Below, piece by piece: positions 1,146 through 52,127 of a stretch of DNA of 64,000 nt. The notes under the pieces were generated by a model, which saw nothing but the letters and a program-made list of their open reading frames with translations, did not search any database and was not told where the DNA came from. A program made the position numbers and the translations under genes. Numbering within the stretch: position 1 is the stretch's first letter; each line of letters opens with the position of its first letter. The stretch spans positions 85,374,001-85,438,000 of the forward strand of contig CM126218.1 in NCBI GenBank assembly GCA_052327205.1. Reading direction: 5' to 3'. The DNA comes from Somniosus microcephalus (Eukaryota).

Positions 1146-2944
1146 CAACTTGTATTTATATAGCGCCTTTAACGTAGTAAAACGTCCCAAGGCGCTTCAC
1201 AGGAGTATTAAAAGACAAAATATTTGACACCGAGCCACAAAAGGAGAAATTAGGGCAGGTGACCAAAAGCTTGGTCAAAGAGGTAGGATTTAAGGAGCGT
1301 CTTAAAGGAGGAAAGAGAGGTAGCGAGGCGGAGAGGTTTAGGCAGGGAATTCCAGAGCTTAGGGCCTAGGCAGCTGAAGGCACGGCCGCCAATGGTGGAG
1401 CGATTATAATCAGGGATGCTCAAGAGGGCAGAATTAGAGGAGCGCAGATATCTCGGGGGGGTTGTGGTGCTGGAGGAGATTACAGAGATAGGGAGGGGCG
1501 AGGTCATGGAGAGATTTGAAAACAAGGATGAGAGTTTTGAAATCAGGCGTTGCTTAACCGGGAGCCAATGTAGGTCAGCGAGCACAGGGGGTGATGGGCG
1601 AACGGGACTTGGTGCGAGTTAGGACACGGGCAGCCGAGTTTTAGATGACCTCAAGTTTACGTAGGGTGGAATGTGGGGGGCCAGCCAGGAGTGCGTTGGA
1701 ATAGTCAAGTCTAGAGGTAACAAAGGCATGGATGAGGGTTTCAGCAGCGGATGAACTGAGGCGGGGGCGGAGACGGGCGATGTTACGGAGGTGGAAATAG
1801 GCGGTCTTTGTTTTGCTGCAGATATGTGGTCGGAAGCTCATTTCAGAATCAAATATGACACCAAGGTTGCGAACAGTGTGGTTCAGCCTCAGACAGATGT
1901 TAGTGAGAGGGATGGAGTCAGTGGCCAGGGAACGGAGTTTGTGGCGGGGACTGAAAACAATGGCTTCGGTCTTCCCAATATTTAATTAGAGAAAATTTCT
2001 GCTCATCCAGAACTGGATGTCGGACAAGCAGTCTGACAATTTAGAGACCGTGGAGGGGTTGAGAGAAGTGGTGGTGAGGTAGAGCTGGGTGTCATCAGCG
2101 TGCATGTGGAAACTGACACTGTGTTTTCGGATGATGTCGCCAAGGGGCAACATGTAGATGAGAAATAGGAGGGGGCCAAGGATAGATCCTTGGGGGGACA
2201 CCAGAGGTAACGATGCGGGAGCGGGAAGAGAAGCCATTACAGGTGATTCTCTGGCTACGATTAGATAGATAAGAATAGAACCAGACGAGTGCAGTCCCAC
2301 CCAGCTGGACGATGGTGGAGAGGCATTGGAGAAGGATGGAGTGGTCAACCATGTCAAAGGTTGCAGGCAAGTCTAGAAGGACGAGGAGGGATAGTTTACC
2401 TTTGTCACAGTCACAAAGGATGTTATTTGTGACTTTGATGAGAGCCGTTTCGGTACTGTGGCAAGGATGGAAACCTGATTGGAAGGATTCAAACATGGAA
2501 TTGCGGGAAAGATGGGAAAGGATTTGGAAGGCGACAACACGTTCAAGGACTTTGGAGAGGAAAGGGAGGTTGGAGATGGGGCGGTATTTTGCAAAGAAGG
2601 AGGGGGTCAAGGGTTGGTTTTTTGAGGAGAGGGGTGATGACGGCAGATTTGAGGGAGAGGAGGACAGTACCTGAGGAGAGAGAACCGTTAACAATGTCAG
2701 CTAGAAAAGGAAGGTGGGTGGTCAACAGTTTAGTGGGAATAGGGTCGAGGGAGCAGGAAGTAGGTCTCATAGACAAGATGAGCGTGGAGCGGTCAAGAGG
2801 GGAGATCGGAGAGAAACTGGAGAAAGATGCGAGTTCAGGGCTGGGGCGGGGGGGAACCTTAGAGGAAGTTTAGCCCGGTGGGCTAGGGGAAGGAAGGGCA
2901 GCTGATCAGATGGTCTCAATCTTAGAGACAAACAAGCCCATGAG
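1146..2944 (-). mobile_element. L2-clade LINE, 5'-truncated, frameshifted RT
   Basis: Minus-strand fragments YRPISNLPFLSKVLE, QSGF.PCHSTETAL, QGSILGPLLFLIYM, HADDTQLYL, SRLDYSNALL and GGRAFSCLGPKLWNSLP; L2-type 3' end gcgctatataaatacaagtt. Confidence 0.92.
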
Positions 2945-3660
2945 CATTTGGGGAGGGCTAACAAGGAAAGGGAATACACATTAAATGGTAGGACACTGAG
3001 TATTGTAGAGGAACAAAGGGACCTTAGAGTGCATGTCCACAGATCCCTGAAGGTAGCAGGCCAAGTAGTTAAGAAGGCATACAGAATGCTTGTCTTTATT
3101 AGCTGTGGCATAGAATACAAGAGCAGGGGAGTTATGCTTCAACTGTATAAAACACTAGTTAGGCCTTAGCTAGAGTACTGTGTGCAGTTCTGGTCAGCAC
3201 ATTACAGGAAAGATGTGATTGCACTAGAGAGGGTACAGAGGAGATTTACAAGGATGTTGCCGAGAGTAGAGAATCTTAGCTATGAGGAAAGACTGGATAG
3301 GCTGGGTCTGTTTTCCTTGGAACAGAGGAGGCTGAGGGGAGACCTTATTGAGGGGTATAAAATTATGAGGGGCCTAGATAAAGTGGATAGAAAGGACCTA
3401 TTTCCCTTAGCAGAGGGGTCAAAAACCTGGGGGTTGTGGGGGTCTGGAACTCACTGCCTGAAAGGGTGGTAGAGGCAGGAACCCTCACCACATTTAAAAA
3501 TCACTTGGATGTGCATTTGGGGTGCTCTAACCTGCAGGGCTACGGACCAAGAGCTGGGAAGTGGGATTAGGCTGGATTGGGCTCTTTGTTGGCCGGCGCG
3601 GACAACGATGGGCCGAAATGGCCTCCTTCCGTGCTGTAACTTTCTATGATTCTATGATTC
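2945..3660 (+). mobile_element. CR1 LINE 3' fragment
   Basis: ORFs 2948-3169 and 3182-3472 with CR1 ORF2 motifs; tail tctatgattctatgattc. Confidence 0.9.
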
Positions 3661-5215: not shown

Positions 5216-5931
5216 GAACTTGAAATGTGGATCCCAGCTCCAGATTGTAGGGCAGACGAAAGAAAGGTAGGTTCGTATTTTACACATAAAATAAATAAGA
5301 AAGTTACAATAAATAAATTCGCAAGGAAATATAATTTAAAATAGTGAATAAAGAAGGAGCTAATAGGAAAGGGAAAGTGAAATCAACGGACCGAAATAAA
5401 GGTTTAAAAACTTTGGGGGAAAAATTCAGTTGGTTAGCGACTCCAGTTAGTGCCTGGCAGGGGCGCTAACAGGGCACTGGTGCAGCAGCACTGGGGCAAG
5501 ACAAATCCAGTGACACCTGCCTAAACCGCCCCCCCCCCCCGTAGCGCCGCCGCAATGAGTTACCACCGGGGACTGCAACGGCAGGCAGATTGTGACGTCA
5601 GTGACCGTGCAACGCTCACTGGGCGCCTGATCTGCAAAATTAATTGTTCCCCCCGCCCCCCCCCGCCTTAGTGCCTTGCCCCGACAGTGACAGGGAGAGG
5701 AGGCATCAAGCAGGCTGATGCCGGCTCCAGGGGCGCTATTTAAAGGGATCATGAGTAATGAGTCGCAGCTATCATGTTTGTGCTGTTTCACTGCTTCCTT
5801 GTCAGTTTAACATTGTGCAACAGTTTAATTCAGTCATTTAATGGTTGTTTGGTATCAGGAGTGTTGTGGCTACTAACAATTAGTTACATTTATACTCACA
5901 ACATATCAAAGTGTTACACTTGGTTACATTA

Positions 5932-7193
5932 ATGGGGGATATACTGGCAGTCGACCTTGTCCTCCAGGATCTACTGCGGAGGGAGCGCAGGCAGTGAGAA
6001 AGATTGGAATACGTGGCCAGAGAGAGGAGGAGGGCCATCAGGGCTCTCAGCAGGAGGGTATTCTGAGAGCACTTCTACCTCCAATTAAGCAAGGAGTAGT
6101 GTATTAGAAAGCTCCGCTTCACCAAGGAGGTGGTCACAGAACTCTGCCACCTCCTACAACAGTGACTCCACTTCAAAAGAGAAGTATTTCATTGGCTGCA
6201 AAGCGCTTTGAGACATCTGGTGGTCGTGAAAGGCACTATATAAATTCAAGTCTTTCTTTTTCCTGCAACTAGACCTCGAGCCTCAGATCAGGGCGACCAC
6301 GGCTCTCTCAGTGGCAGCCAAGGTCACCGTCGCCCTCAATTTCTTCGCCAGTGGACCCTTCCAGTCTGCAAGAGGAGATATAGCTAACATCTCGCAGTTT
6401 GCCATCCAGCGCTGCATCCGGGAGGTCACAGAGGCTCTCTGCACCAGGAGAAGGGACTACATTTACTTCCCCATCACCAGAGAGAAGCAGGACAAGCGTG
6501 CATGTGGCTTTGCCAGGATAGCGGGCTTCTCCATGGTGCAGGGCACCATTGACTGCACCCACGTGGCTTTGTGGGCACCACATAACAATCCTGAGATCTT
6601 CTGTAACCGCAAAGGCTACCACTCACTTAATGTGCAGTTGGTGTGCGACCACAGACAGCGAATCCTCAATGTCAATGCCCGCTATCCTGGCAGCAGCCAC
6701 GATGCCTTCATCCTGTGCCAGACCAGTGTGCCAGCTCTCTTCCATTCACCACGTCAAGCTCGCAGCTGGCTGCTAGGAGACAAGGGCTATCTGCTCTCCC
6801 CTCCTCAGCCCCAACACTCCTGCCCAGCACTCATATAATGAGAGCCATGCCGCCACCAGGAACATCATCGAGCAGACCATCGGGGGGCTCAAGCAACGGT
6901 TCCGCTGCTTTGACCGCTCGGGAGGAGCCCTCCAGTACTCGGCTGAGTGGGTGTCCCATTTCATCGTGGTGTGCTGCATGCTCCGCAACTTGGCCATCAT
7001 GAGGACTCAGCCCTTGCCACCAGGGATTGTGGGACCACCTCAGGAGGAGGAAGAGGGTGAGGAGGAGGAGGAAGAGGAGGAAGAGCAAGAGGAGGAGGAG
7101 GAGGAGGAACAGGAGCGAGGGAGGAGGCAGCCACTCAATCAGCCATCTGGAAGGGCGGTCCGTAACCACCTCATCAGACTGTGGTTCCAATAA
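5932..7193 (+). pseudogene. Harbinger DDE transposase (HARBI1-like), disrupted
   Basis: LRFTKEVVTELC, KVTVALNFFASG, GTIDCTHV, NRKGYHSLNVQLVCD, YPGSSHDAFIL, WLLGDKGY, HAATRNIIEQTIG.LKQRFRC and CCMLRNLA motifs. Has stops, a frameshift and a SINE insertion. Confidence 0.92.
6161..6261 (+). mobile_element. DeuSINE 3' fragment inserted in the transposase
   Basis: Matches the 3' end of the other DeuSINE copies; CCT(A/G)CAAC duplicated at 6153-6160 and 6262-6269. Confidence 0.8.
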
Positions 7194-46655: not shown

Positions 46656-47448
46656 CAGGTAGACTATCCTTTATCCGAACTTCCGAAAACCGAAAACCTC
46701 TAAAAACCAAAAGTTTTTTCGTTCAGCGTAAGTCGTGCGCACGACATGACCAGAGTGGCGCACGACTTATGCTGAGCAGGGCAGAGGGTCACAGAGTTCC
46801 CTCCTGGGTAGGAGATTGCAGGCCGAGCCGGGCAGTGTGAAGGAGGTACCGGGAGAGTGAACCCAACAATACAGCGGCCGGTCCGATAGCTGCAGCGGCC
46901 CGTCCGATATTCTTTTCTCCCCCGACCCGACCCGCGGCCCGTCCGATATTCTTTTCTCCCCCCCCCCACACCCGACCCGACCCGACCCCCGGCCCGTCCG
47001 ATATTCTTTTCTCCCGACCCGACCCGAACCGCGGCCCGTCCGATATTCTTTTCTCCCCCCTGACCCCCCCCCCGGACCCCCCCCGATCCCGCCACCCCCC
47101 CCGGACCCCCCCCGACCCCCACCCCCCCGGACCCCGACCCCCCCGACCCCAACCCCGACCCCCCCCACCGACCCCGACCTGAACCGCGGCCCGTCCGACA
47201 TTCTTTTCTCCCCCCCCACCCGACCTGATTTGCGGGCCAGCTTAGTAGGAGTCAGCCGATATCCGGCTTTCCAGAGAAGCAGGAAGGGGAATGAGACACG
47301 GAACAGTCGCAAGAGGTAGCCTGAACTTTTAAAATCTATATTAAATACAAATTTCCCAGTCTTATAATAATACCTCTGAAATCCGAAAAATTCCAAAAAC
47401 TGAAACTCAGCTGGCCCCAAGGCTTTCGGATAAGGGATAGTGTACCTG
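46656..47448. mobile_element. Tc1/mariner-pogo (Tigger-like) MITE with an internal minisatellite
   Basis: 24-bp TIR CAGGTAGACTATCCTTTATCCGAA / (rc) CAGGTACACTATCCCTTATCCGAA; TA TSD. Confidence 0.9.
46875..47225. repeat. GC-rich minisatellite
   Basis: About five units of gcggcccgtccgatattcttttctcccc separated by variable (ccgac)n / poly-C linkers. Confidence 0.85.
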
Positions 47449-48235: not shown

Positions 48236-50010
48236 TTTTAATGATTGCCTTAATGCAAAGTTCTAATCTGAGGTTCTTGCTGCACTTGGTCACTGGTAGT
48301 TCTGAGACAGACTATCATGAGCGCTTTTCCAGATGACACTAAATTATTTTAGCTTCTTAACGTGTTACTGTGATCAGCTTCTGCTGCGGCAGCTTTTATA
48401 AGCAGAGAGAGCTTTAGCAGAATCTTGGCTTGAAAGACTCACAATTTCTCTTCCGATAAACGTTCCGATATGGAGACCCACTTTTCTTGTGCTTACAGTA
48501 TTCACCCTTAGATTATGGGCACCTCCAGGGAGCCCTATCTTTACTGGGCCACTCAATATTCTTAATAGCTGAGCCTGTGTCATACGATACTGAAAAATTC
48601 CCAAATATCCCAGTAAAAGTACTGTTCAGTTGTCAGGAGGAGAGTTCTTTTTGTACGATGAATGTCATCAGAATATACAGATCAAAAATTATTTATGTAA
48701 CATATTAGAAATCTTACATCTGCATGCATATCCTGCATACACAATTTCCATTATAAATTCCTATGGAAACTCTGTATGTAAACTGGCCACACTGTAATTC
48801 TCCAGTCTACACTTGATCACGACTCCGCGTGTAAAACGCCACAGAAGATCAACTAGCAAAGTATTAAAAATGTTCGGGCAGACACTGGCATTCATTGTGC
48901 TTGTTTTTCGGGCATAAAATGGGCGCAGAGCCTATCAGTTAGGCAGTGGGATGGTCTGGGCCCCAATCTGAGCAGGTGCTGGTCCCACTGCTAAATTTGG
49001 GTGTTTCTGGATGGATGCCTAAATCTGGCATTAGGCCCCTTAATTATGTAAATGAGTGACCTAATTCCTGTTGAAGGACCCTATCGAGAAACTAGTCGGC
49101 GAGCTGCCTGTGGAGGCGGGACAAGGGCAGGCAGCCTGCACCGATTTCCATCAATCCTCGGGCCCCTTGGTTCAGGCGCGTGCCAGTCGCACGTCTGCAA
49201 GCCTGGGCCCAGACTAATTTCTAGGCTTTTATGCCTACACGGATGCACTCTTAGCTTTTATCCATTGCGAACTGCTATTTCCCTATTTTTAATGTAAACT
49301 TATCACACTGTAATTACGCTCCTCTACCAGTGGCAGTGCTGTAGCCTCTCCGTTTTGCATCTTCCCAGCTCTCGTAAGAACATAAGAAATAGGAGCAGGA
49401 GTCGGCCACTCGAGCCTGCACCGCCATTCAATAAGATCATGGCTGATCTTCTACCTCAACTCCACCATCCCGCTCTATCCCCATATCCCTTGATTCCCTT
49501 AGTATCCAAAAAATCTATTGATCTCTGTCTTACATATACTCAAAATAATTAAAGAATATAGGGCCAGAAATTCAGATCGGGGGCTTGCCGCGCATGCAAG
49601 GCCCCGATATGCACTTACCCGACGCGCTGGCCGTTGACCTCCAGGGACGCTTGGAATTCGATTTTGAAAAAGAAGAATCCCGGGCAGCGTATGACGTCAC
49701 GCCGCCCAGGAGTGCAGCCAGCGCGAAGCCTGTAGCGCGCTGTGCAACTGAGACACGCCCCTTGAGGTCTCAGTTTAACAGGACACGCCCCCAATGTTTC
49801 TGCCAAGCTGCTAAGCATTTTTACATGCAAAGCAGCAGTTTAAATAGGTTTTTGGAAGTTTTTTGAAGATTTTGGTAACTTTTATAAACTTTTAAAAACG
49901 TTTACATTATTTTGAAGAATCTGAAGTAGTTTTAAAGAGAATTAAAGCAATTTAAAGACTTTTAAAAGCCCTAAAAGAATTTTTTAAATTCCATTTATTT
50001 ATTTAGCAAT

Positions 50011-50356
50011 GTCGTCGTCATACGTGTCTTCACACTGTTCCCTTTGGGGAACTGTATGAAGTGGTGGAAGGATTTATGGCCATGATTAATGCTCATTCCG
50101 TGACCGTAACCATCTTTGAACCAGCCATTAGGGCGGTTAGTCCTATGGCGGGAGGGTTTTACGGGCTCCCACAAGCTATACAAGGAGGGGGGGCCACCCA
50201 CACCCACGGACGCAAATATCTCACTGGATGTCAACCCAGAATTTAGAGCCGGAGCTCCGACTCCACTTGCCGGGACTGTCTGGAGCGGGGTTCGAAACCC
50301 TACCCTGTTCTGGCCCAGCGGCAGGGATCCTACCGCTATGCCAAAGGCCCAATCCG
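50011..50356 (-). mobile_element. Unrecognised tRNA-headed SINE, copy 1
   Basis: rc A box TGGCATAGCGG, B box GGTTTCGAACCC, 3' hairpin and (GAC)3 tail; TTAGCA near both ends. Confidence 0.7.
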
Positions 50357-50370
50357 ATTAGCAGCGTGAA

Positions 50371-50592
50371 ATGGCTGGAATGAGCACAATTCACGGCATT
50401 AAAAGAACTCACAATTGAACTGATGATGACCTCAGCAATCTCCTCAAGGAGGTGGAGGCGCAGCGCCTGCTCATCATTGGTAATGAGAAGTCAAAGGCGC
50501 CGCAAAAAGGGCAGATGATAGCTTGGTCTTTCAAGTGGCAGCATAGGGCTCCAGTCACGGGGAGGGAAAAGGCGCAGGAAACGTATGGGTGT
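50371..50592 (+). pseudogene. Myb/SANT-like (Harbinger ORF) remnant
   Basis: MAGMSTIHGIKRTHN*TDDDLSNLLKEVEAQRLLIIG...QMIAWS, then frameshifted QVAA and RRKRMG; DLVRNA resumes after SINE copy 2. Confidence 0.65.
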
Positions 50593-50603
50593 CACCTTTT
50601 GTG

Positions 50604-50949
50604 CGGAGTGGGCCTTTTGCGTAGCAGTAAGCATCCCCGCCGCTGGGCCAGAAGGAGTAGGGTTTCGAACCCCACTCCAGACAGTCCCGGCAAGTGGAGT
50701 CGGAGCTCCAACTATAAATTCTGGGTGGACATCCAGCGGGATACTTGCGTCCGTGGGTGTGGGTGGCCCCCCCCCCTCAGATGGGTTGTGGGAGCCCGTA
50801 AAACCCTCACGCCATAGGACTAACCACCCTAATGGCTGGTTCAAAGATGGTTACGGTCACGGAATGAGCGTTAATCACGGCCCTAAATCCTTCCACCACT
50901 TCATACAGTTCCCGAAAGGGAACGGTGTGAGGATACGTACGACGATGAC
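50604..50949 (+). mobile_element. Unrecognised tRNA-headed SINE, copy 2
   Basis: A-box-like TTGCGTAGCAG, B box GGTTTCGAACCC, hairpin gttccc-gaaa-gggaac and GACGATGAC tail; colinear with copy 1. Confidence 0.7.
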
Positions 50950-52127
50950 CTCGTGCGCAATGCACCTCCTTGGGCCCTCAGTCGCAGATGCGAGGGGGCA
51001 AATCGTGCAATTGTTAAATTTTTCATTTTATTGACATGTAAAATGTTGGCCCAGTAATTCCCTTCCAAATGCGCGAGTACGGTCGGGGTACTTACGCGTC
51101 TGGCCGGAGGAAATGCCGGTTTTCAGCATGCACAGCGCATGCGGGGAAAACCGGCATTTCCTGTCCTCTGAACGAAGGGGTTCAGAGGCAGAACGCGTGC
51201 GCAGTAAAATTCGCCGCTTTCATTCATGCTTTCAGTGAGGTCAAGTCCTTACAACTTACACATGAAAAAAGCATGGGTACAGTTGCTCCAGAGGCTGCGG
51301 AGGAAGATATTTCTTATCGTGGAGCTTCTGAAAGTATGTATGTCTGCATATATTCCTTTGTGTGTTATGTATATATTCCTTTACTTATGTGTATGAATGT
51401 ATTATTTAATTATGACTTTCAGAGAAAGTAACTTATTGGAAAATCATAATTAAAAACATACATTCATACACATAAGTAAAGGAATATAAAACATACATAC
51501 ATATACGTAAAGGAATATATGCGGACATACATACATAATTACTTATTACTGATGAAAAGTTTCTTTCTTAAAAGTGCTGGAAATGTTACATTACTCATTT
51601 TAGAACACTCATTTTCACATTCAATTCACACAGCCACAATTGCTCCTTCTACCTACCGTTCTGAAAGCCCGTTTAAAAAAAAAAATTTAAACTTTAAAAC
51701 GTACTTAAAATTTCTTAAAATAACTTCCCTCCCTTTCCCAAACAAAAATATTGCCTTTCAGAAGCTCCGCGATAAAATATATCTTCCTCCGCAGCCTTGG
51801 AACAACTTTACACATGCTTTTTTCAAGTGTAACTTGAAGTTCACTGCGCAAGCGCTGCCTGTGCAGTCGCACGCGCTGTGCCTCTGAACCCCTTCGTTCA
51901 GAGGACTGGAAATGCCGGCGTTCCCCGCATGCGCTGTGCATGCTGAACGCCGGCATTTCCACCGGCCAGATGCGTGAGTACCCAGACCGTACTCACGCAT
52001 TTGGACCCGAATTTCTGGCCCATACTCTTCCGCCTGCATTGCAGCGATGTTCCAACCAGCTCTATTAATCTGCTTCCCAAATTGCCATGTTTTGCCATTT
52101 AACTATATATAACTATATAAAATTAAG

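Follow-up and report, generated by a model that had tools for sequence, protein, structure and literature searches.

Harbinger DNA transposons are defined by terminal inverted repeats (TIRs) plus two genes, transposase and Myb, in the sections of PMC9392472 on which we draw, and those of PMC3787270 describe them as abundant in coelacanth. The Harbinger derivatives treated in these sections resemble the element analysed here in their TIRs, their 3-bp target-site duplication (TSD), a parent with PF13359 and PF13873 domains and deletion derivatives that keep the ends; here, however, two SINEs make up 28% of the length and the right arm folds back on itself and contains a further, inner TIR. SacSINE1, CmiSINE and HE1, tRNA-headed SINEs of cartilaginous fish, likewise have a head with A and B boxes (PMC5499810 and PMC4824008, relevant sections). 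The SINE studied here has a hairpin-(GAC)n tail and a TSD of 9–16 bases, whereas those sections give SacSINE1 and CmiSINE an L2-type tail; its body and tail are unrelated to those of the three families, with the abundant SINE of the window (the whole 64-kb stretch of DNA that was analysed) as their stand-in, and most of its copies arose by DNA transposition. CoeSINE4/5 and MonoRep87, bipartite SINEs derived from RTE and Vingi LINEs, share with it a tRNA-like head, a short unique body, a trinucleotide tail and a TSD, as far as the part of PMC5786205 that describes them goes.

Close inverted SINE pairs are known from Alu: in the relevant part of PMC4365171, two reversed SINEs of ~300 bp lie close together, pair as double-stranded RNA (dsRNA) when a transcript reads through both, and yield reads with clusters of A-to-G changes from ADAR hyper-editing. 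Inverted Alus are a chance product of dense independent insertion, whereas here a DNA transposon has made thousands of copies of one fixed pair (spacing 83–249 bp) as a unit. Composite insertions of coelacanth (PMC4255032) also have SINEs nested with other elements but, in the sections drawn on, they are single-copy in the regions analysed and show no spread by a DNA transposon, unlike the present case. Our literature search (subscription papers and Dfam/Repbase lay outside its scope) turned up no description of a Harbinger that has amplified two SINEs arranged head to head. We describe here a young non-autonomous Harbinger family that carries two separately inserted native SINEs head to head and whose amplification made most copies of that SINE; the pair is likely to act as a read-through dsRNA hairpin edited by ADAR and not as a live Pol III promoter pair. 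We give this reading a probability of roughly 0.85.

Results

An inverted pair of SINE units

The initial annotation, made from the letters of the window, described a divergent pair of ~345-bp units ~250 bp apart, and self-comparison of the window confirmed it: the two units are 89.9% identical over 346 columns and their heads lie 249 bp apart.

50011–50355, minus strand: SINE unit A (probably the later insertion); consensus-fitting A box at 50333–50343, B-box-like motif at 50288–50298, 3' hairpin at 50028–50061, (GAC)3 tail
50605–50949, plus strand: SINE unit B (probably the earlier insertion); A box at 50617–50627 with two changes, B-box-like motif at 50662–50672, 3' hairpin at 50899–50932, (GAY)3 tail

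The pair had been held to be the only one in 64 kb, and indeed no third copy of the 345-bp unit was found within the window. The strong terminal hairpin that had been claimed is present in both units (z −2.9 and −4.2 against dinucleotide shuffles, 0 and 1 of 200 shuffles being equally good), and both tails, read directly, consist of three GAY triplets. Two further claims stood in part. A/B-box-like motifs had been assigned to each unit; unit A fits the A-box consensus, but the A box of unit B departs from it at two positions. The unit was also said to match no other SINE type in the window, which is correct for body and tail but not for the head, a homologue of the head of the abundant SINE. 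The spacer between the units is a remnant of the transposon's Myb gene. We considered a single MITE with 345-bp TIRs and ruled it out: a separate TSD accompanies either unit, and the sequence beyond them is Harbinger. Elsewhere in the window, positions 47000–47240 hold a C-rich tandem repeat with short repeats inside.

The Harbinger carrier and its parent

The pair lies within a transposon with the following parts:

49561–52021, plus strand: non-autonomous Harbinger element of 2461 bp, long-spacer subfamily, recognized by TIRs, an ATA/ATA duplication, collinear siblings and derivation from the parent L153
49558–49560, no strand: left 3-bp TSD, ATA, an exact duplication with the right copy at 52022–52024
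49561–49578, plus strand: left TIR; 18-bp arms, partner at 52004–52021, 89%
49561–50010, plus strand: left arm, 79% to the parent, with an AT-rich end that appears intron-acceptor-like just before the Myb start
50371–50527, plus strand: start of the Harbinger Myb/SANT gene, 91% to the parent exon with PF13873 (E 4e-13); stop at 50416–50418, cut at 50527
50528–50604, plus strand: end region of the Myb gene, joined after an internal deletion of ~1.33 kb (parent positions 2311 to 3641)
51048–52021, no strand: palindromic right arm, an inverted copy of the right end that replaces the transposase gene; inner TIR-like motif at 51048–51059

The parent was recovered by a genomic search for the predicted empty B site, which gave only two matches, both of parent type. 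It is 4682 bp long, has the ends of the window element and an ATA/ATA duplication, and is empty at both SINE sites. Its 338 open codons match DDE_Tnp_4 (PF13359, E 6e-40) and an exon matches Myb_DNA-bind_5 (PF13873, E 4e-13). The features examined for the superfamily, TIRs, a 3-bp TSD and, in the autonomous form, a DDE transposase with a Myb/SANT gene, were thus all found, and the TIRs together with the two genes of L153 make it a Harbinger by definition. Relative to this parent, the window element lacks 1.33 kb of the Myb gene and the transposase and has gained the inverted duplicate of the right end; the Myb remnant is the only gene that it keeps, and its 36-aa Myb piece, searched by itself, gave no domain match.

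All 60 best-match loci (30 for unit B and 30 for the spacer) fall in the Harbinger element with both units; one of them, L003, is cut inside unit A. Both transposon ends could be located in 27 of 30 siblings, and 18 of these 27 have an exact 3-bp duplication. The typical Harbinger TSD is TWA, whereas here it is mostly AWT/ANT. The siblings form two subfamilies, a long one, including the window element, that retains the spacer and a short one in which 164 bp of the spacer is deleted; the short-subfamily elements (n=20) have a mean difference of 0.26%, a sign of youth.

Several observations concern the structure of the family. In the left arm, positions 49600–49800 contain a CRE-like palindrome and two GC-box-like repeats; these motifs are likely to be the Pol II promoter of the Myb gene, facing the tail of unit A, and this predicted promoter could drive read-through of the SINE pair from within the element. 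Rfam miRNA matches in the right arm scored far under the gathering score and reflect palindromes. Stand-alone pieces 74–86% like the right arm (51048–52021) lie near unrelated loci (L067, L084 and L086), which suggests MITE families derived from this right end. Neighbouring copies occur 2.2 kb apart at L036/L037 (contig 4, 204.06 Mb) and 5.0 kb apart at L146/L147 (contig 6, 92.98 Mb), and L037 continues straight into another left end, so tandem or nested arrangements exist. Rearranged composites were also seen, with the spacer and the B head deleted (L250) or with a cut within unit A (L003) or unit B (L179); instability at the palindrome is a possible cause. No spacer inversion via crossover between the arms was found among 156 loci with all three probes, a number that includes overlapping loci and one-insert forms.

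A native SINE family with free copies

A pattern for tails longer than those of the transposon-borne copies (passengers) gave 1,149 genomic matches, and 26 of the 30 loci fetched lie outside the Harbinger. Four of these 26 long-tailed free SINEs are 5'-truncated, and 24 have a TSD of 9–16 bases starting with the last AC of the tail, as called by a script allowing one mismatch; of the other two, one has no TSD and one is a false match. The free copies diverge from their majority by 2.9% on average (25 copies, one of them the B-only locus L145). In their majority head, the A box fits the Pol III box consensus and the B box departs from it by a single additional T. The unit is therefore a SINE by two features, dispersed free copies with TSDs and 5' truncations and internal A and B boxes, and given these free copies it is native to this genome.

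The head (positions 11–76) is homologous to that of the window's abundant SINE, which we take to be SacSINE1-like: a profile built from 29 distinct heads matched all four copies tested (nhmmer E 7e-7 to 2e-3, z 4.2). The bodies are not homologous (score 93 versus 84 ± 7.5 for shuffles); with the abundant SINE as stand-in for a SacSINE1/DeuSINE reference, this speaks against a Deu body and an L2-type tail. Direct tests of the head against tRNAs were weak. ARAGORN found no tRNA gene in the window or in any of four free-copy loci, Rfam gave no tRNA match for the SINE, and nhmmer with a Cys/Lys tRNA profile matched none of seven SINE copies, while window copies of the abundant SINE match a tRNA profile at E 0.003–0.05. 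Comparison with 19 tRNA genes of the Cys and Lys types, the two compared, was collinear but weak (z 0.4–3.5). The putative tRNA origin of the head is argued from its box motifs and its homology to the head of another SINE; the triplet at the anticodon-like place presumably points to Gln. The body gave a weak CPEB3-ribozyme match (13 bits, E 1.6). This genome also has a tandem array of tRNA-Cys genes with 1.59-kb spacing on contig 24 at 42.9–43.2 Mb (L199–L227) and a tRNA-Lys cluster on contig 39.

The SINE would have been inserted by LINE priming on the GAC tail at targets beginning with AC. LINE sequence was joined to the SINE tail at none of the 30 long-tail loci. Eleven loci of a (GAA)n-tailed LINE family, presumably Ingi/Vingi-like, have no SINE match, and six old RTE loci (PF20049 search, 150 scored) have (GAT)n-like ends, no hairpin and no blastn match to the SINE; in this respect the SINE differs from CoeSINE4/5 and MonoRep87. 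An RNA loose end at 50081, taken as a candidate partner LINE, proved to be the unique flank of a 5'-truncated free SINE. On the basis of the trinucleotide tail, the TSD and the comparison with PMC5786205, an RTE- or Vingi-type partner is our guess. As for LINEs in general, the (GAA)n-tailed family is abundant, with 5,273 candidates (L087:1100–2060; L228–L239), and six of its copies on contig 28 have downstream flanks in common and were thus duplicated within a larger unit; RTE-type ends with (GAT)n tails (L162–L167) are old, few and decayed.

Decay of the Pol III promoter pair

An outward-facing Pol III promoter pair carried by a DNA transposon had been proposed. It exists as a structure, but its boxes are decaying and no offspring was detected. 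In unit B, the A-box change G14T occurs in 60/60 and 27/27 young copies, and G22A in 56/60 and 27/27. The short subfamily adds C61T in the B box of unit B and G15T in the A box of unit A, each in 27/27 copies. Searches of the genome with exact head patterns found no B-type passenger head with foreign flanks and one of A type, which is a rearranged transposon copy, as against 375 + 40 free-type heads with foreign flanks under a like flank rule; these patterns can detect ~3 of the 8 flanks that could occur, and the one for A does not recognize the variant C10G, which 19 of 27 short-subfamily copies have.

These data bear on the alternative that the pair is a live outward Pol III promoter or insulator cassette that aids the transposon or seeds SINEs, which would explain why the two-insert lineage won. 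That lineage has at least 3,671 copies, compared with 173 matches for A-empty forms, and unit A of the long subfamily, the window type, keeps the consensus A box (G14, G22). Against such a cassette, however, box-breaking changes are fixed in unit B and in the youngest subfamily, the head of long-subfamily A is not spared (seven changes in 76 head positions versus 14 in the other 269), retrotransposed offspring were not found, and the burst coincides with the palindromic right arm and a shorter length, which are possibly sufficient alone. We therefore consider a live cassette unlikely, and the promoter pair is probably not alive as a pair. Because short Pol III transcripts can be lost from the cDNA libraries used for RNA-Seq, such data are no proof that the promoters are silent.

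Copy number, targeting and origin

A 21-mer of the SINE has 14,835 genomic matches at ≤1 mismatch. The first 100 exact matches cover 44 Mb of contig 1; 80 of them are in head-to-head pairs, 24 short and 16 long, and at least eight of the remaining 20 are transposon-borne. The exact B junction occurs 3,671 times, so there are at least 3,671 composites; 29 of these occurrences fall in the first 44 Mb of contig 1, compared with ~46 pairs there. Extrapolation from these 44 Mb of one contig gives an estimated total of ~5,800–6,000 composites and, once the higher age of free copies is taken into account, an estimated ~80% of the genomic SINE copies as passengers. The earlier suggestion that the SINE spread as Harbinger cargo is thus supported by the paired matches and the 60/60 best-match loci, and most copies are inside the transposon.

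Targeting of this Harbinger family by the SINE, as had been suggested, or by its LINE is very improbable. It has in its favour that one lineage received two insertions ~250 bp apart. Yet 26 of 30 long-tailed copies lie outside the element, in unrelated flanks that have in common only the AC at the start of the TSD, and just two insertion points were seen in the element, with identical junctions in all carriers. Rough arithmetic with ~3,000 free copies in 6.45 Gb and at least 173 targets of 3–3.6 kb gives ~0.3 expected second hits, from which we infer that chance suffices and targeting is not needed.

Still less credible is arrival of the SINE inside the transposon from a foreign or earlier host, as had also been suggested. 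The partner LINE was not found here, as such an origin would allow, but the free, TSD-flanked copies are ancestral in sequence to both passengers, the parent is empty at both sites and the head is common to the genome's abundant SINE. Contigs of organism F, moreover, contain SINE-like pieces with 16–30 differences per 140–190 bases, a diverged relative, while parts of the transposon interior are uncovered, although contig gaps alone prove nothing. Together with the empty parent and the ancestral free copies, these contigs speak against foreign cargo. Contigs of organism C cover the whole composite, including the empty-A and short-spacer joints, and those of organism G contain none of it. In organism E, run X12 on window positions 49461–52121 gave 24 contigs, several of which match the composite at ~95% with low depth, as might result from transfer, from contamination or from a closely related organism.

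Two insertions and a putatively converted tract

The insertions left these traces:

50002–50012, no strand: unit A 11-bp TSD, tail-side copy (head-side 50357–50367), single in the parent
50594–50604, no strand: unit B 11-bp TSD, head-side copy (tail-side 50948–50958), single in the parent
50841–50884, plus strand: unit B tract with unit A alleles, an allele switch and putative gene conversion from A to B; A-to-G-rich RNA reads at 50858–50887 also fall here

Among 30 fetched loci with an empty A site, insert B occupies its site in 28, and transposase DNA lies no more than 1.5 kb away in 24. An A-only form was not seen among the full-length copies classified, a set that left out 11 duplicate loci, 28 loci of the 21-mer search and all partial matches. 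Three two-insert elements of greater age provide a link to the young subfamilies. A tree of 54 copies, restricted to sequence outside the tract by removing positions 232–285 and a poly-C run, places A and B among the free copies as two distinct clades (support 0.86 and 0.89). Unit B has the marks of a minor free subfamily with 40 heads (an extra A at 24, T236 and a gap at 269), and unit A lacks them. In the tract at 235–278, young B carries the alleles of A at seven sites, one of them a restored base, and in a tree of the tract young B groups with A (support 0.93). These A-type alleles are absent from B-only copies (24/24 at sites 236 and 269) and from old B copies. The simplest reading would be that a 44-bp tract moved from A to B by gene conversion, an order anchored by just the three old two-insert elements.

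Origin of the pair from one SINE insertion followed by inverted duplication can be dismissed for practical purposes: the same element did build a fold-back right arm, and young A and B have derived alleles at 235–278 in common, but each unit has its own, different TSD that is single in the parent, A lacks the minor-subfamily marks of B, the clades are separate outside the tract, and the common alleles are missing from B-only and old B copies.

Separate insertion of the two SINEs would instead have gone through five steps, of which the forms survive and the order is our inference. A 4.68-kb parent with transposase and Myb genes and both SINE sites empty would have lost 1.33 kb of the Myb gene and gained insert B, with transposase DNA still present; insert A would then have been added, giving forms with both; the transposase would have been lost and the right end duplicated in inverted orientation; and two young subfamilies, with long and short spacers, would have expanded to thousands of copies. 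Mobilization may have occurred in trans, with the proteins of the parent acting on the retained TIRs. The initial annotation had both SINEs captured by the 'master' element; this does not agree with an autonomous-type parent without inserts and with entry in two steps into a deleted derivative.

Predicted double-stranded RNA and A-to-G reads

In the predicted fold the arms pair with each other: of the 346 bases in A, 320 are matched to bases of B (−719 kcal/mol, compared with −315 to −340 for five shuffles). In two RNA-Seq runs of organism B (X23 and X24), coverage extends along the full element in both directions without a marked increase at the SINEs, and eight and seven reads span the short-spacer joint. 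A unique junction from one run of organism B matches this genome 30/30, which makes organism B a near relative at the least. Most reads mapped at 50841 and 50865 have free-type alleles; this shortage of passenger alleles may be partly due to edited reads failing the 90% filter.

Run X23 contains 41 reads that part from the element at 50888 and continue as a string with a consensus agreement of 0.78. Compared with the young-B majority (33 long and 25 short copies), the string has eight A-to-G changes and no other difference, retains two alleles specific to passengers and finds no counterpart in the genome at up to three mismatches. ADAR hyper-editing, as described for inverted Alus, is the explanation that we favour with some reserve, for one consensus from one of two runs, with no DNA sequence from that individual for comparison. 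An excess of A>G/T>C in the per-run tables was set aside as confounded by CpG decay. Under the proposed mechanism, host transcripts would read through the pair, the arms would fold and ADAR would edit them. At L251 (contig 29, 16.85 Mb), a 75-bp 5'-truncated free SINE lies in an AT-rich stretch that is transcribed (115 reads in X24) and may be a 3' UTR of the host.

Discussion

Harbinger derivatives, tRNA-headed SINEs of cartilaginous fish and nested composites are already known, as is the capture of SINEs by Helitrons. The mechanism proposed here is ordinary nesting followed by a burst; what sets this family apart is its scale, the putative conversion tract and the probable editing. Nesting of insertions is commonplace, yet in this case passengers outnumber the free family by ~4:1 and every intermediate is preserved.

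We also raise, as a doubtful extension, that a still-active transposon has been seeding a vertebrate genome with ~6,000 dsRNA hairpins of 345 bp, ~90% paired and a mobile counterpart of inverted Alu pairs, which would be a main ADAR substrate and self-dsRNA source of this species; that the pair favoured the burst; and that the copies of this retrotransposon would have been made mostly without reverse transcription.

Repeat libraries built from this genome would mislabel the passenger variants as young active SINE subfamilies and thereby misdate SINE activity. In addition, thousands of near-identical, close inverted SINE pairs are natural replicates in which the deletion of inverted repeats, gene conversion from one arm to the other and editing by ADAR can be related to position and orientation, in a lineage for which such inverted-repeat and editing data are scarce.
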